From the NCBI GenBank assembly GCA_039934735.1, contig JBDTLP010000009.1, positions 3,522-67,521 on the forward strand: a stretch of DNA of 64,000 nt, written 5' to 3'. The notes under the pieces were generated by a model. The model was given only the letters and a program-made list of their open reading frames with translations, was not told the DNA's origin and made no database searches. The DNA is from Ferruginibacter sp. (GTDB lineage: Bacteria; Bacteroidota; Bacteroidia; Chitinophagales; Chitinophagaceae). A program made the position numbers and the translations under genes. Below are positions 13,112-60,699 of this stretch, one piece after another; within the stretch, counting starts at the first letter, position 1; every line of letters begins with the position of its first letter.

Positions 13112-13175
13112 GACTGGTCGAAGACATGCAATCTTAAATAGACACAAGTGATCCTGCGGAACACTTGCGCCAGAG

Positions 13176-13215
13176 GGTTGAAACTCTTACTTTATGGAGT
13201 TTCGACCATTTTTAT
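13176..13215 (+). terminator. Hairpin plus T-rich tail after the transposase pseudogene
   Basis: ggttgaaactc / gagtttcgacc forms an 11-bp stem (one G-U), followed by atttttattt. Confidence 0.5.
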
Positions 13216-13701
13216 TTATTTATACTTACAATTTTGCTGACAGTTTCTTTGTTAACGCTGAAATATCACTTGCAATAAATTACAACAACGGGAATAAACT
13301 TTAATGCTATGCATTTACAGGCACCTAATAATGGGTGAAGTAAACAATAGGGGCAATTACGAATTACCAGCTCTTGCAAAAATAAAGTAAATAACCTTTG
13401 CGAACAGTGTATAACGGTTATGCCTAATCCAAGTCAACATTATTTTTAATCAGGCATGGCACAAAGAAGAAGATCATACCGCTGCTGAAATCATAATGCA
13501 CCTGTTTTTAATAAGGAAAAGAGCTTTAACGGGCATGTTGAGGCTCTTTTCGGCGCTATGCATTTTTAAGCTATTGCAACTAGTCATTTTATTTAAGTAA
13601 ATCAGATTATTTTGTAATAATTGTTAAACAAAATGCTTATTTTCAATTTACGTCTGCTATTAACACCCTTCCTTATTTCTTCAAACATTCAACCAAGACT
13701 A

Positions 13702-16677: not shown

Positions 16678-16696
16678 TATTATTAATTTCTATAAA

Positions 16697-16726
16697 AGCC
16701 TCAACGCAATTGTTGGGGCTTTTTTA
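16697..16726 (+). terminator. Intrinsic terminator after the 13702-16677 gene
   Basis: agcctcaac / gttggggct forms a 9-bp stem (one G-U) with loop gcaatt, followed by tttttt. Confidence 0.6.
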
Positions 16727-17260
16727 TTGTCCATTGAAGCCTCATCCAATATATAAATAGTCTTTGAATTAGTTGCCTGCTCTTTTTTTGATACCTACAA
16801 CAATTTCTTCCGCCGCCAGGTTGCCTGATTTTTTTTCGAGAAGAAAGAGCAACCATGTAGGTTGCCTTTTTTTTGATGCGATTTTTTATGCAACCTGTCA
16901 AAAGAATCCGGTTTCGTGCTGCCAGGCTGGTTATAGATCCGAACCGAATTGCTTTTACCAAGTAATTACTAATAACCGTTGCGTTTTCTATATAAATCTC
17001 GATCTTTTATAGAATCCTGGACCTGGTTACAGCGTAAGGCGGCAGTAACTTATTATCAGTTTTCTTAAAAAAAGTTACGGTTTATGCCATTTATCCTTCC
17101 ATAAATCCGCTCATCTAATTCCAATTTCTGTTACTAATAAAGGCCGATAGATCATTTAGTTATTGATTATCAAGTACTTAAGTAAATTATATAGTATTAA
17201 CTACTGCCAATTACCATAAATAAACAAGTACTTTGTTTAACATAGTACTAAAATTCACCT

Positions 17261-20447: not shown

Positions 20448-21197
20448 ATGTTCCAGAATAAAAAGATCGTAGTTGTTCTTCCGGCTTATAATGCAGCACT
20501 TACACTTGAACGTACGTATGCAGAAATTCCGCATGATATCGTAGATGAAGTTGTACTAGTAGATGATGCCAGCAGTGACCAGACATTGGAGATAGCCAGT
20601 CGGCTTGGTATCAAACATCTTATTCGCCACGAAAAAAATAAAGGCTATGGCGGCAATCAAAAAACATGTTACAACAAAGCCATTGAGTTGGGCGCTGATA
20701 TTGTTATCATGCTACATCCCGATTACCAGTACACGCCCAAACTGATTCCTGCTATGGCCACGTTGATCAGTAGCGGCTTATATCCCGTGGTACTCGGCTC
20801 CCGCATTCTTGGTAAGGGAGCATTAAGAGGTGGAATGCCTTTTCATAAATTTATTTCAAACAGGATACTCACCTTCATTGAAAATATTCTGTTGAACGAA
20901 AAGCTTTCTGAATATCATACAGGCTACCGGGCTTATTCAAGAGAAGTACTTGAAACGATCAACTATCCCGCTAACTCTGATAATTTTGTTTTTGATAACC
21001 AGGTGCTTTCGCAAATTGTTTACCACCGGTTTCCCATAGCCGAAATTACCTGCCCCACAAAATATTTTGAAGAAGCTTCTTCAATAAATTTATCCAACAG
21101 TATTACTTATGGAATGGGCGTATTGAAAGTGAGTATACTTCACCGGATGCAGCGGTGGGGGATGGTGAATTTGGAAGTGTATAAGAAAAGGTTGTGA
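20448..21197 (+). CDS. Family 2 glycosyltransferase (polyprenyl-phosphate sugar synthase-like)
   Basis: VVLPAYNAA, VDDASSD and HPDYQY motifs in a GT-A fold. 249 aa, of the type related to Dpm1/GtrB. Confidence 0.85.
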   Translation: MFQNKKIVVVLPAYNAALTLERTYAEIPHDIVDEVVLVDDASSDQTLEIASRLGIKHLIRHEKNKGYGGNQKTCYNKAIELGADIVIMLHPDYQYTPKLIPAMATLISSGLYPVVLGSRILGKGALRGGMPFHKFISNRILTFIENILLNEKLSEYHTGYRAYSREVLETINYPANSDNFVFDNQVLSQIVYHRFPIAEITCPTKYFEEASSINLSNSITYGMGVLKVSILHRMQRWGMVNLEVYKKRL

Positions 21198-21266
21198 GTT
21201 ATGAGTTATGAGTTGTGAGTTGTGAGTTGTGAGTTGTGAGTTGTGAGTTGTGAGTTGTGAGTTGTG
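21191..21266. repeat. (GAGTTGT)n heptamer array, ~11 units, beginning in the GT2 stop codon
   Basis: gttgtgagttatgagttatgagttgtgag...; the GT2 stop TGA (21195-21197) is the first TGA of the array. Confidence 0.9.
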
Positions 21267-21349
21267 TTTAAAATAACAGGAAAGTTAGGTTATTTCCTCA
21301 TGTTTTTTTTGAAGGGCTTTATTAGTTTTGGGTAACAAAATTTATAAAG

Positions 21350-21715
21350 ATGGGTGACTCTAATAGTGTTATAGAAAAGAAATCATACTTTTTTGCTTTG
21401 CAGATAATTAAGTTATACAAATATCTTAGCACTGAGAAAAAAGATTATACATTATCAAAACAAATCTTACGGGCAGGTACATCTATTGGCGCTAACATTG
21501 TAGAGGCATTATCTGCTGAATCGAAACGTGATTTTGTACATAAATTAGGAATAGCTCAAAAAGAGATTAAAGAGACATCTTACTGGTTGAATTTATTATT
21601 GGATAGTGAATATATTTCAAAAGAAAGGTTCACTGAATTAATAAAACTTTGTGATGAACTGTATAGAATTTTAACGGCTATCATACTTACAACAAAACAG
21701 CGATACCTTAAATGA
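21350..21715 (+). CDS. Four-helix-bundle protein (TIGR02436 / 23S rRNA intervening-sequence protein family)
   Basis: 121 aa. KSYFFALQIIKLYKYL...ILRAGTSIGANIVEA...DFVHKLGIAQKEIKETSYWL is characteristic of the family. Confidence 0.85.
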   Translation: MGDSNSVIEKKSYFFALQIIKLYKYLSTEKKDYTLSKQILRAGTSIGANIVEALSAESKRDFVHKLGIAQKEIKETSYWLNLLLDSEYISKERFTELIKLCDELYRILTAIILTTKQRYLK

Positions 21716-21732
21716 GTTGTGAGTTGTGAGTT
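21713..21732. repeat. Second short (GAGTTGT)n block, beginning in the stop codon of the four-helix-bundle gene
   Basis: tgagttgtgagttgtgagtt is a direct repeat of the array at 21191-21266. Confidence 0.85.
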
Positions 21733-21781
21733 TGTCCTTTCAGCATAAAAAAATCTTCCATGCTATGATCATTATAGCTCT

Positions 21782-21980
21782 ATCAATTATAAAAAATACC
21801 GCAGCCTATCTTGGTTGAAAAAATCTTCTCTTGTAATAAACATACTCTCAACTCACCATTCACCACTCAATTAAGTCCTAATCAATTATCAAAAAAACAC
21901 CACAGCCTTTCCAATTTGAAAAAATCTTTTCTTGTAATAAACACACTCACAATTCACCACTCACAATTCACCACTCAATT
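21782..21980. repeat. Two tandem ~95-bp units, each ending in a C-rich arm complementary to (GAGTTGT)n
   Basis: Unit 1 (21782-21872) and unit 2 (21881-21980) both begin atcaattat..aaaaaatctt(c/t)t..cttgtaataaaca. They end ctcaactcaccattcaccactcaatt and cactcacaattcaccactcacaattcaccactcaatt respectively. Unit 2 overlaps the stop of the cyclase gene. Confidence 0.8.
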
Positions 21981-23957: not shown

Positions 23958-24009
23958 TTTTCTGATTTATGCTATTGGCGACCAAATATACAAAGTTTCA
24001 AAGGTTGAC

Positions 24010-24092
24010 AAGGTTGAAAAGTTGAAAGGGTTGAAAAAGTTAATAAAGGAATAACCTTCTAACTTTTTCAACCCTTTCAACTTTTCAACCTT
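24010..24092. repeat. Perfect 33-bp-stem hairpin built from GGTTGAAA-type repeats
   Basis: aaggttgaaaagttgaaagggttgaaaaagtta (24010-24042) is the exact reverse complement of 24060-24092, with a 17-nt loop. It ends 3 nt from the stop codon of the 1914-aa gene. Confidence 0.9.
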
Positions 24093-24095
24093 TTG

Positions 24096-30232: not shown

Positions 30233-32983
30233 ATGAAAGAACGTTTATACAAGATCCTGAATATTAAACATTCAGAGTCGAGCCAGGTTTTTGATCTCTT
30301 AACCGTTCAGTTCTTTATTGGTTTGGCAAATGCCCTTGTTGGTGTAATTGCTTTAACACTTTTTGTTCACTTTCTTACTATTTATTCTTTACCCTGGGTT
30401 TACCTTGTTGTTGCAGGTTTGCTGATGCTCATCAATTTCATTTATGAAAAACTGGAGCATAAATTTTCTCCCTTACAATTGCTTAAATATATCATTGGCT
30501 TTGGTGCTATAATATTGGTTGTATTATGGGCCGGCCTTCGTTTTGGAAATGAGAATGATTTTATTTTTATCTTACTCGTATCAAGTATTTTAATTTACAT
30601 GGTAACCGGGTATGCATTCTGGGGGCTGGTTTCATTGTTGTTTAATGTAAGGGAAAGCCGGAGGGTTTTCTCCATTGTTGGATCCGGTGATATTCCTGCT
30701 AAATTGATTGGTTATATTATAACTCCTTTGCTTATTCCTTTTGTAGGATTGAGCAACCTGCTTTGGCTGGCTATTTTTTCATTCTGTACAGGGTTTATTT
30801 TATTTGGACGTTTTATAAAAAAGAAGAGTTGGGAAACGATCAGGAATAAACCTCATTTAGAGCACCATCATGAAAAACATAATAAGAAGCAGGGTCTTGT
30901 TGCATTCTTCTTCAAACACAAACTGATATTCGCCATTTCTCTTTTATCCATTATAAGTTATAATGTATTCGTACTTGTTGATTATACATTTATTTCACAG
31001 GTTAAATTAAAGTTTGAAAATATTGCTGACCTGGCTGCATACATTTCAATCTTCTTTGCATTTGGAAGATTGATCGCACTCGCTTTTAAACTGATCTTCA
31101 CGAGCCGCCTGATAGAAAGATTAGGAGTAATTTATTGTTTATTCATCACGCCGATTGCGTTATTCTTATTTTGCCTGGTTTTTTTTATTAACGGAGATCA
31201 TTCAACCTATAACCTTTTTATTTTCGGATTGATGGCCATGCTGACAGAAGTTCTTCGTTCTACGATGCAGGAACCTGTTTTTCTTATACTTTTTCAACCT
31301 TTAAAAGAGAACCTCAGGTTGAAGGGGCATATCATTTCGAAGGGATATATGTATCCACCATCACTTATTATTGTTGGATTGTCATTGCTATTCCTCCATA
31401 ATGGCGGAGCACATATTACAATATTGCTTGCTGTTAAAGTAGTGATCTTTAATTTATGTATCTGGGCAGCGATCATATTTTTATTGCGTCGCACGTACCT
31501 GAATACCATTCATGCGTCTATCAAAAAAGGGATATTTAGTAGTGAAGATATTTATATAACCGACCAGCAAACGATTGATATCTTATTGGGAAAAATTAAA
31601 GCAGGAAAAAGAATTGAAGTTATTTATGCACTTAATCTATTGGAGAATTCTGGTTATGCAGGGTTCGATGCTTTGCTGCAAAACCAGGTTTTGGAAGCCA
31701 GGGATGTAGAAGTAAAGAAATATGCATTGGACAGAATGGAAGTGCTGGAAAAAATAAATGTAACCATTCTCAGGGATATGCTTAATGCTGTGAGTGATGA
31801 TGAACTTGAACAAAAGATCGTTTCATTACTTTGCAAATACGATGAAGAATTTTTGGAGAAGGTTTCTGAAAACATCAGTGCCAATGAAGAGCATATAAGA
31901 AAGATCATTATCATCAATTTGCTAAACCACCGTGAGTTTAAATATTTATTTATTGCAGGACAAGAAATCAACCGTTTGTTATATTCTGCCGATCCTGGTG
32001 AAAGAGAACTTGCAGTAAGTATTATCAGCGAACTAAAGAATGTACAATTCTCTGATGCGATTGAACGGCTTATCAATGATGAAGAGATTGCCGTTCAAAG
32101 GGTGGCCATAACGGCGGCGTGTAAACTAAGAATGGAAAAACTGCTTCCATCGATCATTGATCTTTTGGATCAGCCTGCACATAAAAATATTGTTTTAAAA
32201 GGGCTACAGGTATATGGCGATATTCTTTTTGAAGATATCAAACACCGGGCTGTAAATATTCCGGCGAAATATATGTCGGATCTTGTTAAGCTGGCTGGAA
32301 AAACGAGAGGAGAGCATTCAACAACATTCCTTATTTCAAAAATGAATGATGATGATTCATTTCCGAAGGATAATATCCTGCATGCACTTTGGTTGAAAGA
32401 GTATGAACCAACAGGTGTGGACGAGAAAGAAAGATTTTCTTACGTACTGAATAATTATCTGAAATCAGGATTGGACAAGATCCAGGATTACATTCATATC
32501 CCCGATTTTGAACAGCAGGAACTGATAAGAAGATCTATCTTCAACGAAGTGAGGAATGACCTGCAGGCTGCACTAAAAGCCTGTGCTGTTTTATTCAGGA
32601 AAAAGGAGATCAACAGGATATTGGAACTGATGGAAATTGTTAAGCAGGATAAGTTGTATAATGCAATGGAAATGCTTGAACTTGTGTTACCAAAAAAAAT
32701 ATCCAAGGACCTGAATCAGTTATTCGATTTTATTCTTGATCCACATAATAGCAGCAGGATAGCAGTAAAAACTGAAATAAAATCATTTTATAAAAAGGTA
32801 ATTTTTACTTCACCCCTATTGTACAACCCCTGGACAAAGGCTGTCTGTATCTATTCCTCCTGGAAAAATAATGAAACTGATTTTCTCGATAAATTGAAAG
32901 ACCATATACACGCAGATGATCATTATCTTGTAAAGGAGGTAAAGGATTTTGTGAACGAGGAGATGGGGGAGCGGGTGGGGTGA
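30233..32983 (+). CDS. Membrane permease (MFS/TLC-like, ~11-12 TM) fused to a large HEAT-like helical repeat domain
   Basis: 916 aa. The N-terminal ~430 aa are polytopic; the C-terminal ~480 aa are helical repeats. The next gene encodes a cNMP-binding domain. Confidence 0.7.
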   Translation: MKERLYKILNIKHSESSQVFDLLTVQFFIGLANALVGVIALTLFVHFLTIYSLPWVYLVVAGLLMLINFIYEKLEHKFSPLQLLKYIIGFGAIILVVLWAGLRFGNENDFIFILLVSSILIYMVTGYAFWGLVSLLFNVRESRRVFSIVGSGDIPAKLIGYIITPLLIPFVGLSNLLWLAIFSFCTGFILFGRFIKKKSWETIRNKPHLEHHHEKHNKKQGLVAFFFKHKLIFAISLLSIISYNVFVLVDYTFISQVKLKFENIADLAAYISIFFAFGRLIALAFKLIFTSRLIERLGVIYCLFITPIALFLFCLVFFINGDHSTYNLFIFGLMAMLTEVLRSTMQEPVFLILFQPLKENLRLKGHIISKGYMYPPSLIIVGLSLLFLHNGGAHITILLAVKVVIFNLCIWAAIIFLLRRTYLNTIHASIKKGIFSSEDIYITDQQTIDILLGKIKAGKRIEVIYALNLLENSGYAGFDALLQNQVLEARDVEVKKYALDRMEVLEKINVTILRDMLNAVSDDELEQKIVSLLCKYDEEFLEKVSENISANEEHIRKIIIINLLNHREFKYLFIAGQEINRLLYSADPGERELAVSIISELKNVQFSDAIERLINDEEIAVQRVAITAACKLRMEKLLPSIIDLLDQPAHKNIVLKGLQVYGDILFEDIKHRAVNIPAKYMSDLVKLAGKTRGEHSTTFLISKMNDDDSFPKDNILHALWLKEYEPTGVDEKERFSYVLNNYLKSGLDKIQDYIHIPDFEQQELIRRSIFNEVRNDLQAALKACAVLFRKKEINRILELMEIVKQDKLYNAMEMLELVLPKKISKDLNQLFDFILDPHNSSRIAVKTEIKSFYKKVIFTSPLLYNPWTKAVCIYSSWKNNETDFLDKLKDHIHADDHYLVKEVKDFVNEEMGERVG

Positions 32984-33113
32984 AAGAGTTAATAATGTTA
33001 ATAGAGTTAATAGAGTTAATAAAGTTGATAAAGTTGATAGAGTTAATAAAGTTGGCGAAGTTGATAAAGTTTATACAGGAGACATCCTTGTTAACTGTAT
33101 CAACTTCGTCAAC
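32984..33113. repeat. 9-nt-period (AGAGTTAAT/AAAGTTGAT) array plus inverted partner, filling the whole intergenic gap
   Basis: Starts immediately after the stop at 32983. The distal part gttggcgaagttgataaagttta pairs with ttaactgtatcaacttcgtcaac (33091-33113). It ends 2 nt before ATG 33116. Confidence 0.8.
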
Positions 33114-33115
33114 AT

Positions 33116-33595
33116 ATGAACTTCGTGAAGATCATCGACCATAAAAAAAGTTATATGCTGATTATAGAAAAAATATTATTACTAAAGAACTCCGACATTT
33201 TTAAAAACTGTAGCGAAGTGGATCTTATTGAGATCGCTTCTATTTGTGAAGAAAGCCAGGTGGATAAGGATATTATGTTGTTTAAAAAGGGAGATGCCGG
33301 TAACTGTATGTATTTTATCTATTCCGGGAATGTGTCTATACATGATGAAGAGCACCAGTTGGCTACACTTTCTGATAATGAAATATTTGGAGAACTATCA
33401 TTGCTTGATTCGGAAACAAGATCAGCAAGCGTAACAACTTTAACTGATTGTATCTTTTTAAAAATTGAACAAGAAGCTTTTTATGATGTTGTTGCCATCA
33501 ACACAGATATCTTAAAAGGGATTATGAGGACATTGTGCAGGCGGTTGAGGGAACAGGATCGTATAACGGTTGAGATGAAACGAAAAGTTTCTTAA
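33116..33595 (+). CDS. Cyclic-nucleotide-binding domain protein (no DNA-binding domain)
   Basis: FKKGDAGNCMYFIYSGNVSI...IFGELSLLDSETRSASVTT is the canonical CAP/PKA-type cNMP-binding signature (FGE...RSA). Confidence 0.8.
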   Translation: MNFVKIIDHKKSYMLIIEKILLLKNSDIFKNCSEVDLIEIASICEESQVDKDIMLFKKGDAGNCMYFIYSGNVSIHDEEHQLATLSDNEIFGELSLLDSETRSASVTTLTDCIFLKIEQEAFYDVVAINTDILKGIMRTLCRRLREQDRITVEMKRKVS

Positions 33596-33759
33596 GTGTA
33601 TGATGTATGATTTAAGATATAAGATTTAAGATGTATGATTTAAGATGTATGATGTAAGATGTATGATGTAAGATGTATGATGTATGATGTATGATGTAAG
33701 ATTTGTGAGAAGGTTCTAAATTGAAAGACATCTTAAATCTTAGATCTTCAATCTTACAT
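33596..33759. repeat. ~15-unit heptamer array (GATGTAA/GATGTAT/GATTTAA) plus inverted arm
   Basis: The left arm (33596-33704) starts right after the stop codon. The right arm acatcttaaatcttagatcttcaatcttacat (33728-33759) ends 1 nt before the stop of the convergent HD gene. Confidence 0.85.
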
Positions 33760-35831: not shown

Positions 35832-35898
35832 GGCTGTGCTGAATTAAAAATTAAGAATTAAAAATTAATTTTCAACAATTTGTCGATTTGCCGATTCG

Positions 35899-42950: not shown

Positions 42951-43018
42951 AAATGTCTGATGTCTGATGTTTTGATGTCTGAATTTGGCTATGTCCGACA
43001 TGCAAAAATCAGACATTT
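42951..43018. repeat. (ATGTCTG)n-type hairpin between divergent genes
   Basis: aaatgtctgatgtctgatgttttgatgtctga pairs with ..tcagacattt. It includes the local palindrome atgtccgacat. Confidence 0.7.
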
Positions 43019-43436: not shown

Positions 43437-43469
43437 CCAATTGACAATTAACAATTGATAATTGACAAT
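43437..43469. repeat. CAATTGA/CAATTAA heptamer array
   Basis: ccaattgacaattaacaattgataattgacaat starts 3 nt after the stop at 43434. The units are self-complementary (CAATTG). Confidence 0.7.
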
Positions 43470-43823: not shown

Positions 43824-43850
43824 TAAAGACCAACATAAGAAAATCATTCC

Positions 43851-43871
43851 CGATTGCCGATTGCCGATTGC
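43851..43871. repeat. (CGATTGC)x3 heptamer repeat
   Basis: cgattgccgattgccgattgc; no inverted partner nearby. Confidence 0.7.
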
Positions 43872-43916
43872 CTTCCCCTTCGTAATTTGCCGCACTAAAC
43901 GCATATACCAAACAGT

Positions 43917-45545: not shown

Positions 45546-45646
45546 AGAATTTAGAATTTAGAATTATGAATGTAGAATGTTTCGTAACGAATTGCATTCA
45601 TAATTCATTAATTCTGCATTCATAATTCTACATTCATAATTCTAAA
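45546..45646. repeat. (AGAATTT)-type heptamer hairpin filling the carboxylase-rnhA gap
   Basis: The left arm agaatttagaatttagaattatgaatgtagaatg starts the base after the stop codon. The right arm gcattcataattc...ctacattcataattctaaatt ends 2 nt before the rnhA start. Confidence 0.85.
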
Positions 45647-45648
45647 TT

Positions 45649-46107
45649 TTGAGCAAAATTACCATATACACAGACGGTTCCTCACGCGGCAATCCTGGGC
45701 CCGGCGGCTATGGCGCTATATTGATGTATGGGGAACACAGGAAGGAAATTTCAAAAGGCTTTCGACGTACAACCAATAACAGGATGGAGTTGATGGCAGT
45801 TATTGAAGGATTGAAACTGATTAAAAAACCGGAGCTCCCTGTTGTTATTTATTCCGATAGCCAGTATGTTGTAAGAGCCATTGAAGAAGGTTGGTTGAAG
45901 AACTGGATTAAGACAAATTTTAAAGGTGGCAAAAAGAACAGAGACCTTTGGGAAGAATATTATGATCTCTCTCAAAAAATGAATGTAAAAATGGTTTGGG
46001 TAAAGGGGCATGCTACCAATCCTTTTAATAATCGTTGTGATGAATTGGCGACAAGTGCTGCGGATGGAAAGGACTTAATTGTTGACGAAGGATATGAGGA
46101 AATATAA
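45649..46107 (+). CDS. rnhA: Ribonuclease HI
   Basis: DGSSRGNPGPGGYG, TNNRMEL, DSQY and GH..NPFNNRCDELA give the complete RNase H catalytic DEDD context. Confidence 0.9.
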   Translation: MSKITIYTDGSSRGNPGPGGYGAILMYGEHRKEISKGFRRTTNNRMELMAVIEGLKLIKKPELPVVIYSDSQYVVRAIEEGWLKNWIKTNFKGGKKNRDLWEEYYDLSQKMNVKMVWVKGHATNPFNNRCDELATSAADGKDLIVDEGYEEI

Positions 46108-46247
46108 AATGTAAAATGTAAAATGTAAAATGTAAAATGTAAAATGTAAAATGTAAAATGTAGGAAGATATAATTGGTGAAGATACTATCGATTATAATA
46201 AAGCTTAACTTTTACATTTTGCATTCAATATTTTGCATTTTACATTT
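46105..46247. repeat. (AAATGTA)x8 array overlapping the rnhA stop, plus inverted arm
   Basis: The rnhA stop TAA (46105-46107) is the first unit. Eight perfect units run to 46162. The right arm tttacattttgcattcaatattttgcattttacattt is at 46211-46247. Confidence 0.9.
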
Positions 46248-46954: not shown

Positions 46955-47053
46955 ATGTCTGATGTATGATGTTGGATGTATGATTTGAAATACAGTCTCT
47001 TTTCAAAAATCATACATCATACATCTAACACCATACATCTTACATCATACATC
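46955..47053. repeat. (GATGTAT)-type heptamer hairpin upstream of the YraN-like gene
   Basis: atgtctgatgtatgatgttggatgtatgattt pairs with aaatcatacatcatacatctaacaccatacatcttacatcatacatc. Confidence 0.8.
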
Positions 47054-47056
47054 TTT

Positions 47057-48008: not shown

Positions 48009-48908
48009 ATGTGGGAAGCATACAAAAAAGGGTATAAAGCATGGTTGCAACTGGAGAAATCGCTTGCAGATAATTCCGTACAATCTTATTTGCAGGACAT
48101 CGACAAGTTCACCGGTTACCTGCAGTTAAAGAGTGATATGAAAACGCCGGGGGATATCGTACTTAAAGATCTTGAGAAGTTTATAGAATGGATACACGAA
48201 CTTGGTTTAACCGCATCATCACAGGCAAGGATCATATCTGGCTTGCGTAGCTTTTATAAATATTGTTTACTGGAACAGATCACCGTTATTGATCCAACTG
48301 TATTAATGGAAGCGCCCAAACTAAAAAGAACGTTGCCGGATATCCTGGCATTTGAAGAAATAGAAAGGATCATCTCAGCTATTGACTTAAGTAAACCAGA
48401 AGGTGGCAGGAATAAAGCAATATTTGAAACCATGTACAGTTGCGGATTAAGGGTGACTGAAACGGTAAATTTAAAAATCAGTTGCCTTTATCTTGATGTA
48501 GGTTTTATTAAAGTGATTGGAAAAGGGGATAAAGAAAGATTGGTGCCCATTGGGACAGATGCCATTAAATTTATTAATATTTATAAAAATAATATTCGCA
48601 TTCACATACCAATTGCAGCAGGGGAGGAAGACATTCTTTTCTTAAACAGGAGAGGGAGCAGGCTGAGCCGGGTTATGATCTTTTTAATTTTGAAAGAACT
48701 TGTAAGAAAAGCGGGTATCAAAAAAAATATTTCACCACATACATTTCGTCATTCATTTGCCACGCATCTTGTAGAGGGAGGCGCCGATCTAAGAGCGGTA
48801 CAGGAAATGCTTGGCCATGAAAGTATTACTACCACGGAAATATATACGCATCTTGACAGGGAGTTTTTGAGGAACACGTTGCAGCAGTTTCATCCGGCGT
48901 TTAAGTGA
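48009..48908 (+). CDS. xerD: Tyrosine recombinase XerD
   Basis: 299 aa. GLRVTE (Arg) and HTFRHSFATHLVEGGADLRAVQEMLGHESITTTEIYTH (HxxR, H, Y). Confidence 0.9.
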   Translation: MWEAYKKGYKAWLQLEKSLADNSVQSYLQDIDKFTGYLQLKSDMKTPGDIVLKDLEKFIEWIHELGLTASSQARIISGLRSFYKYCLLEQITVIDPTVLMEAPKLKRTLPDILAFEEIERIISAIDLSKPEGGRNKAIFETMYSCGLRVTETVNLKISCLYLDVGFIKVIGKGDKERLVPIGTDAIKFINIYKNNIRIHIPIAAGEEDILFLNRRGSRLSRVMIFLILKELVRKAGIKKNISPHTFRHSFATHLVEGGADLRAVQEMLGHESITTTEIYTHLDREFLRNTLQQFHPAFK

Positions 48909-49087
48909 GCTGTTAGCTATAAGCTTTAAGCTTTAAGCTATAAGCTGGCCGTGATGATAGAAGTTTATTTTTTTAGGAAACTGTATAATATTTTGAAGTT
49001 ATTGGTAATTTAACCGTTTAGATTTCCTGAAGAATAGGGGAATATCAAATTTAAAAAAAACGACTTACAGCTTATAGCTTGAAGCTA
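48908..49087. repeat. (AGCTATA/AGCTTTA) heptamer hairpin bridging two convergent stop codons
   Basis: The left arm (48908-48948) starts in the xerD TGA. The right arm cttacagcttatagcttgaagcta (49064-49087) contains the TAG of the GT2 gene. The loop is ~115 nt. Confidence 0.8.
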
Positions 49088-50877: not shown

Positions 50878-50988
50878 TTGAAAAAAGTATTCTTTTTAGC
50901 ATTATTGGCAACAACACTTGTAATTTCTTTTACAAGTTGTGCACCCAAATATGGTTGCCCTTCAACAGAAAAAATGAACAGACCATAA
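50878..50988 (+). CDS. Possible 36-aa lipoprotein micro-ORF, translationally coupled to ytxJ
   Basis: TTG start; MKKVFFLALLATTLVISFTSCAPKYGCPSTEKMNRP with a lipobox-like FTSC. Its stop overlaps the ytxJ ATG (TAATG at 50986-50990). Confidence 0.4.
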   Translation: MKKVFFLALLATTLVISFTSCAPKYGCPSTEKMNRP

Positions 50989-51320
50989 TGAACTGGAAAT
51001 TGCTAACCACTGAGGATCAGTTACATCAAATCAAAGAAGCATCTGCACAAACAGCCCAGGTAATATTTAAACATAGCACCCGTTGTTCGGTAAGCAGCAT
51101 TGCAAAGAGCCGTCTTGAAAGGGCAGAAACTCCCGAAAAAGTTGATTTCTATTTTCTTGATCTCATTAAATACCGGAATATTTCAAATAAGATCGAATCC
51201 GATTTTATGGTGAATCACCAATCGCCCCAGGTTTTACTTATAAAAAATGGTGAATGTGTTTATGAGGAAAGCCATAATGGGATAACGATGGATGAGATTG
51301 TGGAACAAATAAATAGCTAG
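50988..51320 (+). CDS. ytxJ: YtxJ-family (DUF2847) monothiol thioredoxin-like protein
   Basis: MNWKLLTTEDQL...VIFKHSTRCSVSSIAKSRLE carries the TRCxxS active-site motif. The track ORF begins at an upstream TTG. Confidence 0.75.
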   Translation: MNWKLLTTEDQLHQIKEASAQTAQVIFKHSTRCSVSSIAKSRLERAETPEKVDFYFLDLIKYRNISNKIESDFMVNHQSPQVLLIKNGECVYEESHNGITMDEIVEQINS

Positions 51321-51386
51321 TTAGGGGCTCTGAGAAATTGGGGCCTTTTTTTATATGTATGATGTAAGATTTAAGATGTAAGATTT
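51309..51386 (+). repeat. Left copy of a ~75-bp direct repeat flanking the helicase gene
   Basis: ataaatag(ctag)ttaggggctctgagaaattggggccttttttt-atatgtatgatgtaagatttaagatgtaagattt is ~85 percent identical to 56477-56548. It begins in the last codons of ytxJ. Confidence 0.8.
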
Positions 51387-51416
51387 GTTGAAGGTTTGAG
51401 CTTTGCAATGGTTAAT

Positions 51417-54400
51417 TTATCTTTCAAAATGTAGTTCAGGTAAGATAATTTTCACTTCTTGTTCTTTATCTTCGGCTTTCCAATGAACAATGAAATTTAC
51501 TTTTGCTTCCCTCAATTCAAAACCATTTTTCTTTATTTCTGCTAATCTATCAATGAATTTCTTCGAGAACTTTAAAACCAATTCAGCTTTTTGATTCTTG
51601 CATCCTTCATCTGAAATCGTAATTGAATCTCCACTTGTCAATGCATTTACTCTTTTTTGTATAAATTCAAAATATCCTAACTGTAAATCTTTGTGCGAAA
51701 GATGTAATGCCAAACTGCCTGGCGGTTGGAATGTGTTATTGTTTTCTATCCTTTCTAATCCCCCGGTCATTAGCTTGTCAAGATAATTTCCATTCAAATG
51801 GATTGTCAGATTTTGTTTTGCTCTTGTCATGGCAACATACAACTGTCGTTTCATTTTATCCTCCCGTGCATCAAAGTTTTCAAGCATCAGAAAAACATTA
51901 TCAAACTCTTTTCCTTTTGCTTTATGAATGGTTGAAACAAAAATTGTTTCTCCATTTTCACTTATAAAATCTTCAAGCTTTGATTCCCGGATAAACACTT
52001 CAAAATCGGATTTGTATTTCTTCTTTGTGTTTGTGGCTTCAAAATCCTTAATGAGGTTATTGCAAATTTCAAACTTTGTACTTTGCTTAAATTTGTCAAT
52101 CACTTTTCTTTTAGCATCTCCCCATACGTCATCGCTAATTGTAAAAACTCCGTCGTCTAATTTTAATTCATTTAAAAAAAAGCGAATCTCCGCAAGATTA
52201 AACAAACTAAAACCATCGTTGGATTGAATCAGTTTTGCTTTCAAACCTTTCTTTATCAAAAGCCCTGCAACCTGGAACGCTTCTTCGTTCTTGTGTGTAA
52301 GAATACAAGTCGTTCCTGATAATCCAGTAGAAAGTATGTCATCAACTAAAGGAATGATCAGATTGCTATTCTTGTAATGAATAATTTTAATTTTTCCATT
52401 GTCGGTTTGTTTTGTTTCAATGGGGATTTCTTTCAATCGTAATTGAATTGTCTTTACAAACTGATTAGTGAATGAAACCAAATTGCTTTTACTTCTGTAA
52501 TTTGTAATGAGCTCATATTTAGCTGCTTTTTTTTCTGTAATGAAACTTGACAGGTATTTTGAATTAGCCCCACGCCATTCATAAATGTTTTGGTCATCAT
52601 CACCAACGGCAATCACTCTCATGTCATCATTCTTTTCCATCATTACTTTTATCAACTCAAATTCATCCTCGTCCATATCCTGTGCTTCATCAATTACCAA
52701 AACTGTTTTTGTAATTCTGCTTATCTCAACTTCGTTATTCTTAATTTTTTCAACGGTGGTTTTAATAATTGCATCTGCTTTGTCAATCGTTCCAACTTTA
52801 CCAAGCAAGTCAAAACAATAGGAGTGAAAAGTTTTTATGTCGATGAAATGGGCAGCGTTTCCAATTAACTCAATTAATCTTTTTTTAAATTCTGTTGCCG
52901 CTGCTCTTGAAAATGTAACCATCAGAAGTTGTTCATGCTTTACATCTTCCATCAAAAGCAAAGAAGCTAATTTGTGGACTAAAACTTTTGTCTTCCCGCT
53001 TCCTGGTCCTGCTGCAACTACAATGTATTGGGATTTTTTGTCGTCAATGATTCTTCGCTGAACATCGGATAACGAATCAAAAAGTTGCTTGTATTTTTTA
53101 GGGGTGATGTTTCTTTTAATTTCAGACTCTCTGCTGCCTTTAAAATATTTACTTAGGAATGAAGGGAAATTCAATTGAAAATAGTCGTCAACAAATGTCA
53201 ATGCCCCGGTGTAATCATCAACCATCTTCTTCGCATATTCACCAACGATATGAATTTGCTGAACCTTATGGTCGTAATAATCACTTAGCTTCTGATAATC
53301 CTGTTCCTTGTATTGAATTCTTGGGTTTTGTTCAATCTTGTCAATAGTAAGCCTGTTGTACACAACAAGAAAACCGCCTTCTATTTTTATTGCTTCAATT
53401 CTTGATAGATAAAACAAAGTATCCTCAATCTCCTCAATCGTTGCTTTCACTTCAAACAACTGAATCTGATTACTAAATGCTGCTAATAATTCCAGAACAG
53501 AAAATTCAACCAACACTTCATCTTTTTCAGCTTCAGCTTCTTCTTTAATTGTGTTGCTCTTCTCATACAAATAGCCAACAATAAATTTAGATAAGAGGTG
53601 CCGTTTCTCCAGCCTTTCTTTTAATACTTCTTTGGGCTGACAACTTATTGCTGCAATATGATTTTTGTCATAATCTTTATTATACCGCTTAATCCAATGC
53701 TTGATTGCCCAAAAATTTAAGAGGGTTTTTATTTTATTTGGTGTTACATCCTTGCATCCATTTTCTTCCGCTTGTTCATTAAGTTCCTTTATATGAAATG
53801 TTTTTTCCTGCTCTTCAAACAAGGGGCAAAGAAAATTTTCAATCAGCCCGTAGGATTCGGCAATATCAAGTGAACTTTTTTTACTAACGCCCTTTTTGAC
53901 AAATGCAGTCAAATCTTTTGCATCTGCTAAAATCTTCTCGTCACGCAAAAGATTTATTACTGAAATAACATTTCTTATTTCAATTCCTAAATTGTCAGAG
54001 ATATAATCAACCCTGGATTCTGCTTCGTCTTGCTTTGATTGCTTTCTACTCTTACTCGAAAAAAGTGTTTTAATAATTCTTGTTGCAGTAATTTTTTGTT
54101 CTTCACTAAATTTTTGGGAACGCATTATTTTGTCAATAGCTTCTTGTGCAGTCTTTGATAAAATACTGTTGGCAAAAATTCTTGGCATATTCTGGTTTCG
54201 CTTCAAATAGCCAGCTTCTTCTAATGCTGCAATTGCAGTAGTTACCCTCCTCTCAATTTCTTTTAGATTGTCATCCCAACCTGCGGCTCTTGCAATTTCT
54301 AAAGCAGATTTCTGAACACTTGATTTGAATTTGGTAATGAATTTTATTGCCTTCCAGATTTGTTGTATCTCATGTATGTTGAGTTTTGTTTGGTTTAACA

Positions 54401-56216
54401 AAATAAAATGCTTTGCCAGATCTTCTTCGTTAAATAAAACATAGCAAACGGCTGTAATATTTTCATCTCGTCCTGCTCTTCCAGCTTCCTGTACATAATT
54501 TTCAAGTGAATCTGAAATCTCATAATGAATAACCATTCCAACATCTTTCTTGTCAACTCCCATTCCGAAAGCAGAAGTGGCAACCATTATCTGAACGTCA
54601 CCTGCTATGAAAGCATTCTGATTTTCTGTTTTCTCCCGGCTTTCCATTTTTCCATGAAATGCTTTTGCATTAAATCCATCTTTACATAATCGGGCTGCCA
54701 GCGCTTCGGCTCTCTTTGTTCTTGAAACATAAATGATAGTAGGGCAATCTTTTTCTTCAATCAAATCCCTGGCTGAGTTATACTTTTCTTCATCGTCTCC
54801 TTTTTCAAAAACTTTGTAATGCAGATTTGTTCTTGTCGCTTTGGAAGGAAATATTTCCAACCTGATTCCTAACTTTTCTTTGAAGTATGCACAAATATCT
54901 TCAATGACTTTTTGTTTCGCTGTTGCAGTAAAACACGAAACTGGAATTTGCTCTTCAAGATTTTTATTCTCTTGAAGCAGTTTGATAAAATCACCGATGT
55001 ATAAATAATCAACCCTAAAATCTTGTCCCCATGATGAAAAGCAGTGAGCTTCATCAATTACAAAGCGAACGACTTTTCTTCCCAACATTAAATTCTCGAT
55101 TGTCTTTGAACGCAAAGATTCGGGAGAAATATAAAGTATGGAGGCAAATCCATCCTGCACTCTTTGAATTGATTTTGCCCTTTCAATGGGATCAAGCAAA
55201 CCATTTATTGTAACAGCATCAGTGATTCCAATTTTTTCAAGATTGTCAACCTGGTCTTTCATCAAGGATTGTAAAGGAGAAATTACAACTGTCAAACCTT
55301 TAGTATTTTCTCCACTCATTAAAGCTGGAACCTGGAATGTGATTGATTTGCCGCCGCCTGTAGGAAACACTGCTAAGATTGATTTGTTATCTACAGCTGC
55401 CTGAACAGCATTTTCTTGCAATTGCTCACCTGCATAACTTCTGTATTTATCAAAGCCGAAATAATTTTTCAATGCGTAATGTATGTTTAATGCCTGGTCA
55501 CAATACACGCAACCAGTCAAACATGGATTGTTTCTTAGCAGAAACATTATACGTTCAACTTTGGGATAATTCTTTAAAACCCAGGGTGGTGTTATTGAAT
55601 AACGGTTGTTACAATTTATGAGTGCTAAACAATAAGCCAATTCAATTGGATGTTCAGAAATTATTTTAGGCAGGTTTGCGTTTTCACAAATTAGATATTG
55701 AAATTTTTCTTTGATTACTTTTTCAATATCTGATTCGTGGCACTTATATGCGATGAAACTGAAAAAGGAGTGAAATTCCTTTTTATCGTTTAATAACAAA
55801 TAGAAAATTTGTTTTAGTTTTTCTTCAACTTGATTGAAAATAGAAACTTCTTCAAGGAAAAGGTCTTTGGCTTTTATAGAATCATTAAGCGGATTGTTTG
55901 TGTCCTCTGTTTGCAGTTTATCGTCTTTAAGCAAAGCATGATAAGGCCTTGTTGGAAACAAAAGAGGAGACAGAAATAAAGTATCAATAATGTTAGCTGG
56001 ATTTATTTTGGCATCGGTTACTGCTTGCTGAATATACAGTAAGTCGTGATTCAAAATGTTGTGTCCGCAAATGTACTCAGTGCCATTTAAGAATTTAATA
56101 AAGTCAGTAACGGAATTTGAATGAAAAGAATTGCCGTTGTCCTTAACACTTCCAATGTCAAGAATTTTATGGCTCTTTGGCTCAATCTCGGTATCTATAA
56201 AAGCAATTGAGTTCAT
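51417..56216 (-). CDS. Exonuclease-RecQ-UvrD triple-fusion helicase (1599 aa)
   Basis: N-terminal DEDD exonuclease motifs: IAFIDTEIEP, GHNILNHD. RecQ core: FPTGGGKS, VISPLQSLMKDQ, DEAHCFSSWGQDFR, QEAGRAGRD. C-terminal UvrD/Rep core: AAGPGSGKT, VIDEAQD, TNYRS, STIHKAKGKEFD, YVAMTRAK. Confidence 0.9.
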   Translation of the reverse strand: MNSIAFIDTEIEPKSHKILDIGSVKDNGNSFHSNSVTDFIKFLNGTEYICGHNILNHDLLYIQQAVTDAKINPANIIDTLFLSPLLFPTRPYHALLKDDKLQTEDTNNPLNDSIKAKDLFLEEVSIFNQVEEKLKQIFYLLLNDKKEFHSFFSFIAYKCHESDIEKVIKEKFQYLICENANLPKIISEHPIELAYCLALINCNNRYSITPPWVLKNYPKVERIMFLLRNNPCLTGCVYCDQALNIHYALKNYFGFDKYRSYAGEQLQENAVQAAVDNKSILAVFPTGGGKSITFQVPALMSGENTKGLTVVISPLQSLMKDQVDNLEKIGITDAVTINGLLDPIERAKSIQRVQDGFASILYISPESLRSKTIENLMLGRKVVRFVIDEAHCFSSWGQDFRVDYLYIGDFIKLLQENKNLEEQIPVSCFTATAKQKVIEDICAYFKEKLGIRLEIFPSKATRTNLHYKVFEKGDDEEKYNSARDLIEEKDCPTIIYVSRTKRAEALAARLCKDGFNAKAFHGKMESREKTENQNAFIAGDVQIMVATSAFGMGVDKKDVGMVIHYEISDSLENYVQEAGRAGRDENITAVCYVLFNEEDLAKHFILLNQTKLNIHEIQQIWKAIKFITKFKSSVQKSALEIARAAGWDDNLKEIERRVTTAIAALEEAGYLKRNQNMPRIFANSILSKTAQEAIDKIMRSQKFSEEQKITATRIIKTLFSSKSRKQSKQDEAESRVDYISDNLGIEIRNVISVINLLRDEKILADAKDLTAFVKKGVSKKSSLDIAESYGLIENFLCPLFEEQEKTFHIKELNEQAEENGCKDVTPNKIKTLLNFWAIKHWIKRYNKDYDKNHIAAISCQPKEVLKERLEKRHLLSKFIVGYLYEKSNTIKEEAEAEKDEVLVEFSVLELLAAFSNQIQLFEVKATIEEIEDTLFYLSRIEAIKIEGGFLVVYNRLTIDKIEQNPRIQYKEQDYQKLSDYYDHKVQQIHIVGEYAKKMVDDYTGALTFVDDYFQLNFPSFLSKYFKGSRESEIKRNITPKKYKQLFDSLSDVQRRIIDDKKSQYIVVAAGPGSGKTKVLVHKLASLLLMEDVKHEQLLMVTFSRAAATEFKKRLIELIGNAAHFIDIKTFHSYCFDLLGKVGTIDKADAIIKTTVEKIKNNEVEISRITKTVLVIDEAQDMDEDEFELIKVMMEKNDDMRVIAVGDDDQNIYEWRGANSKYLSSFITEKKAAKYELITNYRSKSNLVSFTNQFVKTIQLRLKEIPIETKQTDNGKIKIIHYKNSNLIIPLVDDILSTGLSGTTCILTHKNEEAFQVAGLLIKKGLKAKLIQSNDGFSLFNLAEIRFFLNELKLDDGVFTISDDVWGDAKRKVIDKFKQSTKFEICNNLIKDFEATNTKKKYKSDFEVFIRESKLEDFISENGETIFVSTIHKAKGKEFDNVFLMLENFDAREDKMKRQLYVAMTRAKQNLTIHLNGNYLDKLMTGGLERIENNNTFQPPGSLALHLSHKDLQLGYFEFIQKRVNALTSGDSITISDEGCKNQKAELVLKFSKKFIDRLAEIKKNGFELREAKVNFIVHWKAEDKEQEVKIILPELHFER

Positions 56217-56476
56217 TCTTTTATTTACTGATTATGATTTATTATTAAGTTCTTAAGACAAGATAATAAAACAAGATGGTTTTTTCTATTCGAGATTAAT
56301 CATTTTGCTCTTTCACATCATAGGGTTGGAACATGAAAAGTATTTGTTTTTTGCAAAGATTACAAACAGGTAGCATTTTTTAAAAGCCAGGAGTAAATGA
56401 AACCACAAAGCGTAGCAGGATTGGAAAACAAAATTACTATTGCCAATTGGCTGGCAGGTAACAAGATTGAAAACTT

Positions 56477-56548
56477 ATAAATAGTTAGGAGCGCTGAGAG
56501 ATCGGGGCCTTTTTACATGTAGGATTTAAGATGTAAGATTTAAGATTT
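56477..56548 (+). repeat. Right copy of the direct repeat flanking the helicase gene
   Basis: ataaatagttaggagcgctgagagatcggggccttttt-acatgtaggatttaagatgtaagatttaagattt. Confidence 0.8.
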
Positions 56549-56620
56549 AAGATATGTAAATCATTACAAAGCCCAAATCTTAAATCTTACATTTTAAATC
56601 TTACATCTTAGATCATACAT
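56521..56620. repeat. (GATTTAA/GATGTAA) heptamer hairpin abutting the galM stop
   Basis: The left arm aggatttaagatgtaagatttaagatttaagat pairs with the right arm aaatcttaaatcttacattttaaatcttacatcttagatc, which ends 1-2 nt before the galM stop (56622). Confidence 0.85.
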
Positions 56621-56621
56621 T

Positions 56622-57626
56622 TTACAAAGCTGAAATCTTATAAATAGTAACCTGCCTGTATGCTTCTCCAGGCTTTAATAACGTATTTGGAAATGATGGT
56701 TCATTTGGACTGTTGGGATAATGCTGCGCTTCCAAGCATAGCCCAAATTGATTACCCTGCTCTTGATTTCCTGAATAAAATTGAACAGCAGGTTCGGTTG
56801 TGAACATTTGCATGAAGCGGCCACTTACAGGTTCATATAAATTAGCAGCTATCGTAAGACCTGTTGAATGATCATCTTTTCGAATGATCATATTATGATC
56901 GTATCCTCCAATAGCAGCAATATCTTTTCCTGTTTTTTTTGTTGATGTAAAATCAAGTGCGGTATTTTTTACGGAAGCAATTTCGCCGGTAGGGATGAGC
57001 GTTGCATCTGAAACGGTATAGCTATCTGCAAACAACTGTAATTCATGATCAAGAATGGGTGTATTGCTATTTCCAGATAAATTAAAATAACAATGATTGG
57101 TAAAATTAACTGATGTTGATTGATCTGTAGTTGCTTTATAATCTATTTTAACTTCGTTATCATCAGTTAGGCTATATATAACCGTTATATTAAGGTTGCC
57201 GGGAAAACCTTCTTCGCCATCTTTGCTTAGGTAAGTTAGTTTTAAACTATTATCGGCTTCATTTGGTTCGGCATTCCACCATGCTTTATCAAAACCTTTG
57301 TTGCCGCCGTGTAAACTATGCTCACCATGATTTTTTGCAAGTTTGTATTCTTTCCCATCAATAGTAAAAATTCCATGAGCGATCCTGTTACAATAACGGC
57401 CAACAATGCAGCCCATGTAAGGATTGCTGCTGTTTAAATAATCGTCAAGATTATCAAAGCCATTAACCACATTGGCAAACATATTATTCTTATCCGCAGT
57501 AATGATCTTTGTTACTGTAGCGCCATAATTAATAATGGAAACCTGCATACCGCTGGCATTTTGTAATGTGTATTCTGTAACAGGTTTGTTTTCGAAATTC
57601 CCAAAGGGCTTTTTTGAAATACTCAT
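56622..57626 (-). CDS. galM: Aldose 1-epimerase (galactose mutarotase)
   Basis: 334 aa. HSLHGGNKGFDKAWW and the C-terminal E..HYPNSPN motifs are typical of GalM. Confidence 0.9.
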   Translation of the reverse strand: MSISKKPFGNFENKPVTEYTLQNASGMQVSIINYGATVTKIITADKNNMFANVVNGFDNLDDYLNSSNPYMGCIVGRYCNRIAHGIFTIDGKEYKLAKNHGEHSLHGGNKGFDKAWWNAEPNEADNSLKLTYLSKDGEEGFPGNLNITVIYSLTDDNEVKIDYKATTDQSTSVNFTNHCYFNLSGNSNTPILDHELQLFADSYTVSDATLIPTGEIASVKNTALDFTSTKKTGKDIAAIGGYDHNMIIRKDDHSTGLTIAANLYEPVSGRFMQMFTTEPAVQFYSGNQEQGNQFGLCLEAQHYPNSPNEPSFPNTLLKPGEAYRQVTIYKISAL

Positions 57627-60608: not shown

Positions 60609-60699
60609 GATATCAGATTTCAGAAATCAGACATCAGCTTTTAATAAAATAAGTAAAACCTCAAGAACATCTGAAATCTGACTTCTGAAATCTGATATC
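60609..60699. repeat. (ATCAGAN) heptamer hairpin between the GH2-GH53 gene and galK
   Basis: gatatcagatttcagaaatcagacatcag pairs with atctgaaatctgacttctgaaatctgatatc. Here the TGA-bearing arm is the distal one. Confidence 0.85.

Follow-up and report, generated by a model that had tools for sequence, protein, structure and literature searches.

A foreign helicase gene at the centre of an intergenic palindrome in Ferruginibacter: candidate capture with duplication of the flanking hairpin module

How does a single large gene come to lie between two convergent host genes, bracketed by imperfect direct repeats? This question is raised by a 64,000-nucleotide (nt) stretch of a Ferruginibacter species (assembly GCA_039934735.1, contig JBDTLP010000009.1, positions 3,522 to 67,521), hereafter called the window, in which a gene for a 1599-amino-acid (aa) fusion helicase separates ytxJ from galM. 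The contig belongs to a metagenome-assembled genome (MAG) and comes without read-level verification. A preliminary description of this DNA, made from the sequence alone, proposed that the helicase gene had been inserted into a hairpin that ytxJ and galM once shared. We examined the repeats, the corresponding junction in relatives, and the origin of the helicase, and conclude that the gene was probably captured at a palindrome centre, with duplication of the adjoining module, by breakage or template switching.

Direct repeats, empty sites and breakpoints

The direct repeats of ~75 base pairs (bp) noted in the preliminary description are real. A gapped local alignment pairs 51318-51386 with 56482-56548 at 84% identity across 69 columns, with two indels consisting of CTAG and of two T nucleotides within a T-run. 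In a repeat scan, the non-heptamer part (51313-51350 versus 56477-56514, 84% over 38 nt) was separated from the heptamer arms (51355-51388 versus 56510-56557), which form a family of their own. On the + strand past the ytxJ stop, the left copy reads TTAGGGGCTCTGAGAAATTGGGGCC, a run of seven T nucleotides (T7), ATATGTATG, and then four to five GATKTAA heptamers. The same order recurs ~5.16 kb to the right as ATAAATAG, TTAGGAGCGCTGAGAGATCGGGGCC, T5, ACATGTAGG and heptamers, such that motif, T-run, AYATGTA and arm have identical order and spacing in both copies. By eye, the longest exact run between the copies spans ~19 nt and is made of heptamers; exact runs within the non-heptamer motif reach 8 nt at most.

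The concern that such a repeat could be a common intergenic motif does not apply to its non-heptamer part, which has two sites in the 64 kb. Specifically, the 25-nt pattern TTAGGRGCKCTGAGARATYGGGGCC, allowing up to three mismatches, occurs only at 51321 and 56485 of the window (shuffle expectation 0.00). A looser version was found in 0 of 176 fetched loci, and the 25-nt form had no match in the viral contig collection. The heptamer part is not specific by itself, as the GATKTAA unit family is also present at 33.6 kb and 47.0 kb.

A galM genome scan and a ytxJ metagenome scan, whose nearest relatives are ~76-81%, yielded no empty site; the relatives recovered either held other cargo or had no galM close by. 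Empty sites came from a ytxJ protein search followed by contig look-ups, which produced four Ferruginibacter-like contigs that lack the helicase and in which 43-90 bp separate ytxJ from galM. In the closest of these, L171 (ytxJ 88-90% identical), an 83-bp spacer gives the order ytxJ, arm, loop, arm′, galM. The genes are likewise adjacent around a hairpin in L174 (84%), ~90 bp apart in L175 (85%), and separated by 43 bp with a simple terminator in L173 (80%). The hairpins of L171 and L174 consist of GATTTAA/GATGTAA/GATATAA units, the same family as in the window. Because these empty-site relatives show it, the ancestral ytxJ-hairpin-galM junction that had been postulated is real. None of the relatives found has the helicase at this junction (0 cases), contrary to the scenario in which all relatives carry the gene here.

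Other lineages hold different cargo at the same place. Between ytxJ and the galM hairpin, L002 contains DinB, a 125-aa open reading frame (ORF) and a 1400-aa PKD/type IX secretion system (T9SS) protein (11094-16989). L089 has a stretch of length similar to that in L002 between the two genes (8324-13933), and L003 has a 574-aa PKD/T9SS protein (11075-13090). Because different lineages hold different cargo there, the ytxJ-galM junction is a recurrent insertion hot spot.

The two halves of the ancestral hairpin can still be recognized on either side of the helicase. The left arm (51353-51413, + strand) comprises a heptamer array at 51355-51386 and a non-heptamer apex at 51387-51413, and the right arm, here called arm′ (56561-56620, + strand), abuts the galM stop. 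When reverse-complemented, 56559-56620 aligns colinearly with 51355-51413 (score 35, 0/2000 shuffles). The non-heptamer apex TTGAAGGTTTGAGCTTTGCAATGGTT alone matches the complement of the right arm at 21 of 26 positions, again with 0/2000 shuffles scoring as well, and the left arm has GATTTGTTGA in common with the arm/loop boundary of L171. From these matches, the arms beside ytxJ and galM are the two halves of one palindrome with ~60-nt arms. Because the left arm and apex mirror the right arm, the foreign DNA, extending from ~51414/51420 to 56457, is placed within a few nt of the palindrome centre. The insert had originally been delimited as 51387-56476; the insertion itself stands, but 51387-51413 is ancestral arm apex and the insert starts at ~51414-51420.

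As originally described, the left repeat has no adjacent inverted partner, and the right repeat is followed by a partner arm that ends at the galM stop. The best partner of the left copy is 5.2 kb away at 56584-56613. On the right, a duplicated left arm designated arm(R) (56515-56560, + strand) now serves as the local partner of the right arm. The paired segments 56517-56559 and 56564-56606 are 86% complementary around a 4-nt loop, and the hairpin folds at −50.7 kcal/mol (z = −9). Orthologous hairpins are found at the galM 3′ ends of L002, L171 and L174.

The extent of the duplication is revealed by the sequence immediately left of the right repeat. Segment G (56461-56484, + strand; ACAAGATTGAAAACTTATAAATAG) is a duplicate of the galM 3′ end that closes with the second copy of the 8-bp sequence ATAAATAG (56477-56484). 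The original galM 3′ end, segment J (56624-56647, + strand; ACAAAGCTGAAATCTTATAAATAG), is antisense to the last codons of the gene and holds the third copy of the 8-bp sequence at 56640-56647; the first copy is inside the last ytxJ codons (51309-51316, + strand). G and J are identical at 20 of 24 positions (83%), with a score of 16 that none of 2000 shuffles reached (shuffle maximum 14), and J is conserved among the galM ends of L171, L174 and L175. The two segments start 163 bp apart, and G abuts the terminator copy of the right repeat at the 8-bp sequence. Because the 24 nt left of the right repeat duplicate the galM end and are joined at ATAAATAG, the duplicated unit is a whole ~163-bp module composed of terminator, arm, arm′ and the last galM codons. 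The galM end/ATAAATAG/terminator junction is the outcome of joining the module's end to its own beginning via 8-bp microhomology. Thus, the suggestion that the left flank and arm were duplicated holds for the fact of duplication, but not for its extent, since the whole intergenic module including the galM end is involved. The left module copy is short of one right arm, and the helicase gene and its upstream region occupy that place.

The left repeat had also been said to start within the ytxJ codons. The sequence ATAAATAG is indeed present there, but similarity in the coding region is not significant. G compared with the ytxJ end gives a score matched by 130/2000 shuffles, and an extension of the repeat into ytxJ was rejected, given that 403/500 and 130/2000 shuffles score as well. 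The match at the ytxJ end is better explained as microhomology, and the flank as a copy of the galM end. A resemblance of the motif to continuing galM sequence was at chance level by eye and was likewise rejected. The ytxJ 3′ end diverges from its relatives right past GAACAAAT, at ~51309-51310.

The repeat copies differ by 16%, whereas the window and L171 differ by ~43% at four-fold sites, and therefore the duplication is younger than the split from L171. This timing agrees with the empty L171 site. The equal decay of the two repeat pairs, which retain 84% and 83% identity, is consistent with one event.

Each repeat also includes a terminator-like element. The left one, TERM(L) (51321-51352, + strand), is an intrinsic-terminator-like hairpin with G-U pairs and a T-run that we assign to ytxJ. 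It folds at −12.2 kcal/mol on the + strand only and is predicted by the scan as a Rho-independent terminator (51323-51348, 11 pairs followed by T7). The right one, TERM(R) (56485-56514, + strand), is a degenerate copy with 84% identity to TERM(L), in which two stem pairs are broken and the fold is weaker (−9.8 kcal/mol); it fails the terminator scan. We infer that the predicted TERM(L) terminator is still functional and that TERM(R) is functionless and decaying, because a redundant copy is expected to decay in this way. In one respect the ancestral junction differs from the earlier proposal: the ytxJ-hairpin-galM order is present, but none of the empty-site relatives has the terminator-like motif. 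Judging from this distribution, the motif must have arisen in the lineage of the window before the duplication.

Possible routes to the present arrangement

Starting from the observed insertion, empty sites, breakpoint positions and duplicated segments, an order of events and a possible enzymology can be proposed. In the ancestor, ytxJ and galM would have converged on one long, nearly loop-less GATTTAA/GATGTAA palindrome, with a short terminator appearing between ytxJ and the palindrome in the lineage of the window. The palindrome might then have been extruded, or have stalled a replication fork, and been broken at its tip. One end could have been extended on the sister copy, slipping between two copies of ATAAATAG and halting at the hairpin base; alternatively, a tandem duplication via unequal exchange may have come first. 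A ~5.04-kb foreign fragment, comprising the helicase ORF minus its last two codons and ~240 bp of upstream sequence, would have been end-joined at the centre, and the same or a preceding event would have duplicated the ~163-bp module, with loss of one right-arm copy. No dedicated recombinase would be required for these steps. As an outcome, the predicted terminator of ytxJ would be kept, and the rebuilt hairpin would close the galK-SSF-galM gene row and shield the helicase gene from read-through.

The three breakpoints are hairpin landmarks, namely the centre, the base of one arm, and the 8-bp microhomology. ORF and Pfam scans and a comparison of helicase copies revealed neither a recombinase nor a transposase in the insert, and no terminal repeats. 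Several observations weigh against capture at the palindrome centre. No intermediate was found that has the module duplicated without the helicase, or the helicase without the duplication, and the ytxJ of the nearest relative is only 88-90% identical. A two-step model must include a deletion whose endpoint coincides exactly with the base of the right arm that was lost. The presence of a terminator before the event is deduced solely from its embedding in host-derived sequence in both copies. In addition, the inserts of L002 and L003 are without bracketing repeats, and that of L002 is at the hairpin base rather than the centre, and therefore capture at the centre with a duplicated arm does not hold as a rule. 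Finally, the sequence is a MAG contig for which an independent assembly confirms the galM-hairpin side only. This assembly is Logan contig L001 (2.3 kb, found via the exact galM protein), which reaches ~56527 and, because it ends inside the hairpin, is uninformative on an empty site.

The requirement for an exact deletion disappears if the helicase arrived by a Campbell-type integration, which leads to an identical final arrangement with neither such a deletion nor a separate loss of the right arm. Here, a circle with the helicase gene, its upstream region and a galM-end/terminator/arm junction would have recombined with the locus in the terminator-arm/apex region. Such a circle could have been formed by excision between two copies of ATAAATAG in a related strain, and the G/TERM(R) junction has precisely the form expected of a circle closed between two such copies. 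The divergence of the copies (84% identity) is also expected if one of them came from another strain, but the 84% and 83% values fit decay in place equally well. Moreover, the donor strain would need an earlier helicase insertion at the same locus, and circular forms have left no evidence; we therefore judge this route to be unlikely. Insertion of a site-specific islet appears highly improbable. In that case, the 70-bp repeats would be the attachment sites attL and attR of a tyrosine recombinase, such as the one encoded by the xerD-like gene (48009-48908) or one supplied in trans. The locus does resemble islands bounded by attachment (att) sites in having a single foreign segment between imperfect direct repeats, one of which overlaps a host-gene 3′ end, with empty sites in relatives and a phage-integrase-family gene 2.4 kb away. 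However, that gene is syntenic in relatives with empty sites or other cargo, and therefore looks like a housekeeping Xer gene. Also unlike such islands, the insert has no integrase or other recombinase ORF, and the repeats are 84% alike without the long identical core of an attL/attR pair. Furthermore, the right repeat bears the end of the other flanking gene, such that the galM-end copy G has no place in an att model.

An assembly artefact, in which a MAG contig joined different strains or loci through heptamer arms, is suggested by the recurrence of heptamer arrays of the same family in the window and by the break of the short-read contig L001 inside the hairpin. Against this, the copies are diverged rather than collapsed, and therefore could not be created by an assembler. 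The longest exact word they share is ~19 nt (by eye), G and TERM(R) are separate sequences, each with substitutions of its own, and the left-arm apex finds its match in the right arm at a distance of 5.2 kb, linking the two sides to a single locus. An artefact of this kind is very unlikely. The idea that the helicase is ancestral and was precisely deleted in relatives seems scarcely credible, as does the independent convergence of two terminator-heptamer modules. Slippage between repeats can delete hairpin-flanked DNA, and heptamer arrays arise repeatedly in this genome, but at least four lineages would need clean deletions and others a replacement by unrelated cargo, while the seven fetched helicase copies are in unrelated contexts. 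Convergence would have to account for a 25-nt motif that is present at both sites although 0.00 occurrences are expected by chance, and for motif, T-run, AYATGTA and arm being alike in order and spacing.

Capture at the palindrome centre can also be compared with known systems. Enterobacterial repetitive extragenic palindromic sequences and bacterial interspersed mosaic elements (REP/BIME) are intergenic palindromes that act as hot spots of rearrangement and insertion. Like them, the hairpins discussed here are repeated elements at gene 3′ ends and between convergent genes that are tied to local duplications and to insertion of other DNA. They are also numerous at gene 3′ ends (~12 in 64 kb), with orthologous examples in L002, L171, L174 and L176. 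Unlike REP/BIME, they are built from tandem 7-nt units that vary by locus, and the insert is an ordinary gene rather than an insertion sequence (IS). Long palindromes are unstable, with SbcCD-type cleavage of hairpins or cruciforms and repair of breaks at the centre. The position of the foreign DNA a few nt from the symmetry centre, the ~60-nt arms and the microhomology junctions match this process. The process usually results in deletion or sister-templated repair, whereas a 5-kb gene capture and a 163-bp direct duplication are observed here. As in an integron cassette, the unit consists of one ORF, its similarity to other copies stops at the ORF bounds, and an imperfect hairpin stands beside it. 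However, there is no IntI-like gene between the flanking genes, no attI site and no cassette array, and the cargo arrived with 240 bp of its own upstream sequence. Being present at the empty sites of L171 and L174, the hairpin is part of the host locus rather than of a cassette. A transposon or IS is not indicated either, given that transposase domains and conserved ends are lacking and the duplication is ~69-163 bp compared with the usual 2-14 bp. The locus works like palindrome-driven rearrangement and is, mechanistically, ordinary gene capture at a fragile intergenic hairpin.

On this interpretation, the locus would be a natural, base-pair-resolved example of a single foreign gene acquired without mobile-element machinery. 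The breakpoints and empty sites make palindrome fragility directly testable as a route of horizontal gene capture.

The fusion helicase and its relatives

The helicase gene (51417-56216, − strand) encodes a protein of 1599 aa with a RecQ-like superfamily 2 core at ~aa 244-630 and a UvrD/PcrA-like superfamily 1 (SF1) helicase at ~aa 1043-1483. It is the only ORF of at least 100 aa in 51387-56476, and no other long ORF is present between the repeats, as expected from the earlier statement that the insert carries only this minus-strand gene and its upstream region. Pfam matches include DEAD, Helicase_C, UvrD-helicase (PF00580, E=2e-32) and UvrD_C (PF13361, E=2e-20). Residues 1-243, ~635-1040 and 1485-1599 are without domain assignment.

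Membership in the RecQ family is indicated by the recQ_fam model TIGR00614 (275.4 bits versus a cutoff of 219.8, aa 249-633). Matches in PDB include RECQ5 and RecQ at E ~1e-52 and also UvrD. The protein is not a canonical RecQ, as its score for the equivalog model TIGR01389 is 308 bits against a cutoff of 640. There is no Pfam match to RQC or HRDC, and the UvrD-like SF1 part is fused at aa 1043-1483 instead. Its domains also place it with the UvrD/PcrA/Rep SF1 helicases, but every equivalog score is far under the cutoff, and therefore the helicase is not an ortholog of UvrD itself. Two defence-related assignments were similarly not borne out. The DpdF model NF041063 gives 222 bits against a cutoff of 550, PADLOC matches to DpdF cover the RecQ-like part only, and there are no dpd neighbour genes beside the helicase, which is flanked by ytxJ and galM. 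For Gabija, GajB models match aa 1045-1482 only, and there is no second gene within the insert. A search of the literature for RecQ-UvrD fusions returned nothing specific.

Full-length homologs with 78-91% identity were recovered by protein search, under the source names Ferruginibacter, Saprospiraceae, Odoribacter, Agriterribacter, Flavobacterium, Arcicella and Pedobacter. Against Flavobacterium proteins the helicase shows 80-82% identity, whereas galM and its Flavobacteriaceae counterparts share just 45-49%. Among the homolog loci (L082-L088, L169 and L170), seven fetched copies are in unrelated, defence-island-like contexts whose neighbourhoods are rich in HNH, methyltransferase-HIT, DUF1016, Bro-N, Fic and toxin-antitoxin genes. 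Three copies compared by blastn are 86-88% identical in DNA, with similarity ending at the ORF bounds (56231 to 51415-51422), and ~15 nt 5′ of the ATG, but no more, are common to other copies. Because homologs are spread across families, occupy unrelated contexts and share identity that ends at the ORF bounds, we regard the helicase gene as horizontally acquired and foreign to this locus. Its GC content is 32-36%, compared with 35-40% in the flanks, and GC content and skew gave no clear foreign signal. A phage or plasmid origin was rejected, as no relative of the helicase was found among viral contigs and plasmid homologs are at most 50% identical. Such a fusion, unusually well conserved (78-91%) across source-named Bacteroidota families, merits a study of its own.

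The window protein ends in ...HFER*, two residues short of the ...HFERRS* of its nearest relatives, and because of this shorter end the acquired fragment appears to terminate within the final helicase codons. On the other side, upstream region F (56217-56457, ~240 bp) arrived together with the helicase gene. It has no homolog in any fetched locus, and blastn-short gave matches at chance level only. A predicted 27-aa ORF on the + strand (56397-56480; MKPQSVAGLENKITIANWLAGNKIENL) runs from region F into the galM-end copy, with its stop inside ATAAATAG and just ahead of TERM(R).

No comparable bracketing repeats were detected around the helicase copies in L082-L084. In L084, clusters of a GCCGACAC-type motif are present on both helicase flanks (5670-5890 and 10840-11170), each with TTTTAAAA(C/A)ATTGCCGACAC at 90% over 21 nt. 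The motif is probably a repeat local to that island, with no relation to the heptamer hairpins. In L085, the helicase copy appears to form an operon with genes for HNH and methyltransferase-HIT proteins.

Heptamer-array hairpins and neighbouring genes

At almost all gene or operon ends of the window there is a hairpin with arms built from tandem 7-nt units (8-9 nt in some). Such hairpins are located at 21191-21977, 23992-24094, 32981-33122, 33597-33759, 45546-45648, 46100-46247, 46955-47055, 48915-49086, 56517-56626 and 60609-60699. The unit differs by locus, with examples including GTTGTGA, AAATGTA, AGAATTT, ATCAGAA and GATKTAA. In total, ~12 arrays per 64 kb have an adjacent inverted partner, and just two of these hairpins are split. 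Literature searches on heptamer-array hairpins in Bacteroidota yielded only a study of direct heptamer repeats rather than hairpins (PMC4679880), and no locus-specific hairpins. The locus-specific palindromes that close most genes here also merit separate study.

The second split hairpin is at 21.2-22.0 kb and contains a four-helix-bundle gene of the 23S_rRNA_IVP type (21350-21715) between two copies of a GTTGTGA left arm. The left array has 11 units and holds the stop of an upstream gene for a GT2 glycosyltransferase, and the second has 2.9 units and overlaps the stop of the four-helix-bundle gene. In L176, which is from the same genome as L002, the gap between the GT2 and cyclase genes is 131 bp without the four-helix-bundle gene (6720-6930). 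The homologous outer hairpin is present there, and its loop holds a nested heptamer hairpin of GTTTGGG units. The preliminary description had likened the helicase locus to this cassette at 21.2-21.9 kb, and the likeness holds qualitatively, in that the gene is between left-arm copies and the site is empty in L176. In a search for other genes bracketed by duplicated arms, this cassette was found, but no such arms surround the inserts of L002 and L003. The four-helix-bundle gene is followed by a 101-bp tandem duplication (21782-21964; 1.8 copies, 83% matches), each unit of which ends in the complementary right hairpin arm. This case shows that hairpin modules in this genome do undergo tandem duplication. 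The 23S rRNA intervening-sequence genes of family PF05635 are similarly located in stem-loops, but the 21-kb cassette is between protein-coding genes rather than in rRNA, and the helicase cargo is unrelated to them.

A broader possibility is that heptamer palindromes in Ferruginibacter and related Chitinophagaceae are a general, recombinase-independent device for gene capture at their centres, with each event leaving a duplicated arm that rebuilds the terminator. This idea is based on the two split hairpins among ~12, both with empty sites, and on the other cargo at the ytxJ-galM junction in three lineages. With two cases only, and with counter-examples, we consider it unlikely. If true, palindrome centres would often break or stall replication and would be a preferred entry point for foreign ORFs.

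Several ORFs run into the first heptamers of a neighbouring array, which provide the stop codon and at most a few residues. Examples are ytxJ in L171 (1080-1092) and galM in L002 (11005-11029), as well as the GT2 (21195-21197) and four-helix-bundle (21713-21715) genes of the window, whose stops are inside heptamers. Arrays at 35842-35868, 42953-42982, 43438-43469 and 43846-43872, with units AATTAAA, ATGTCTG, CAATTGA and ATTGCCG, are direct-only and not hairpins because there is no inverted partner within 9 kb. Across the whole window, Rfam gave no match at gathering thresholds.

The left host gene, ytxJ (50988-51320, + strand; stop TAG at 51318-51320 by direct reading), encodes a 110-aa monothiol redoxin of the bacillithiol system, YtxJ/BrxC (Pfam BrxC, E=2e-36; NCBIfam TIGR04019, 124 bits versus a cutoff of 77). 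The right host gene, galM (56622-57626, − strand), encodes an aldose 1-epimerase (Pfam Aldose_epim, E=1e-87) and is the final gene in the galK-SSF-galM row. In the genome scan, the nearest species representative was Ferruginibacter sp. 5N328, whose galM is 81% identical. Protein searches matched the exact helicase and ytxJ sequences only to an NCBI Ferruginibacter MAG contig, and a separate exact-protein look-up of ytxJ had no match. Located 5′ of ytxJ are genes for an exonuclease and a GT2 glycosyltransferase and the xerD-like recombinase gene, and the order xerD-GT2-exonuclease-ytxJ is kept in L002, L003, L089 and L173. A small lipoprotein-like ORF at 50878-50987 (MKKVFFLALLATTLVISFTSCAPKYGCPSTEKMNRP) overlaps the ytxJ start (TAATG) and is apparently conserved 5′ of ytxJ in L003 and L173.

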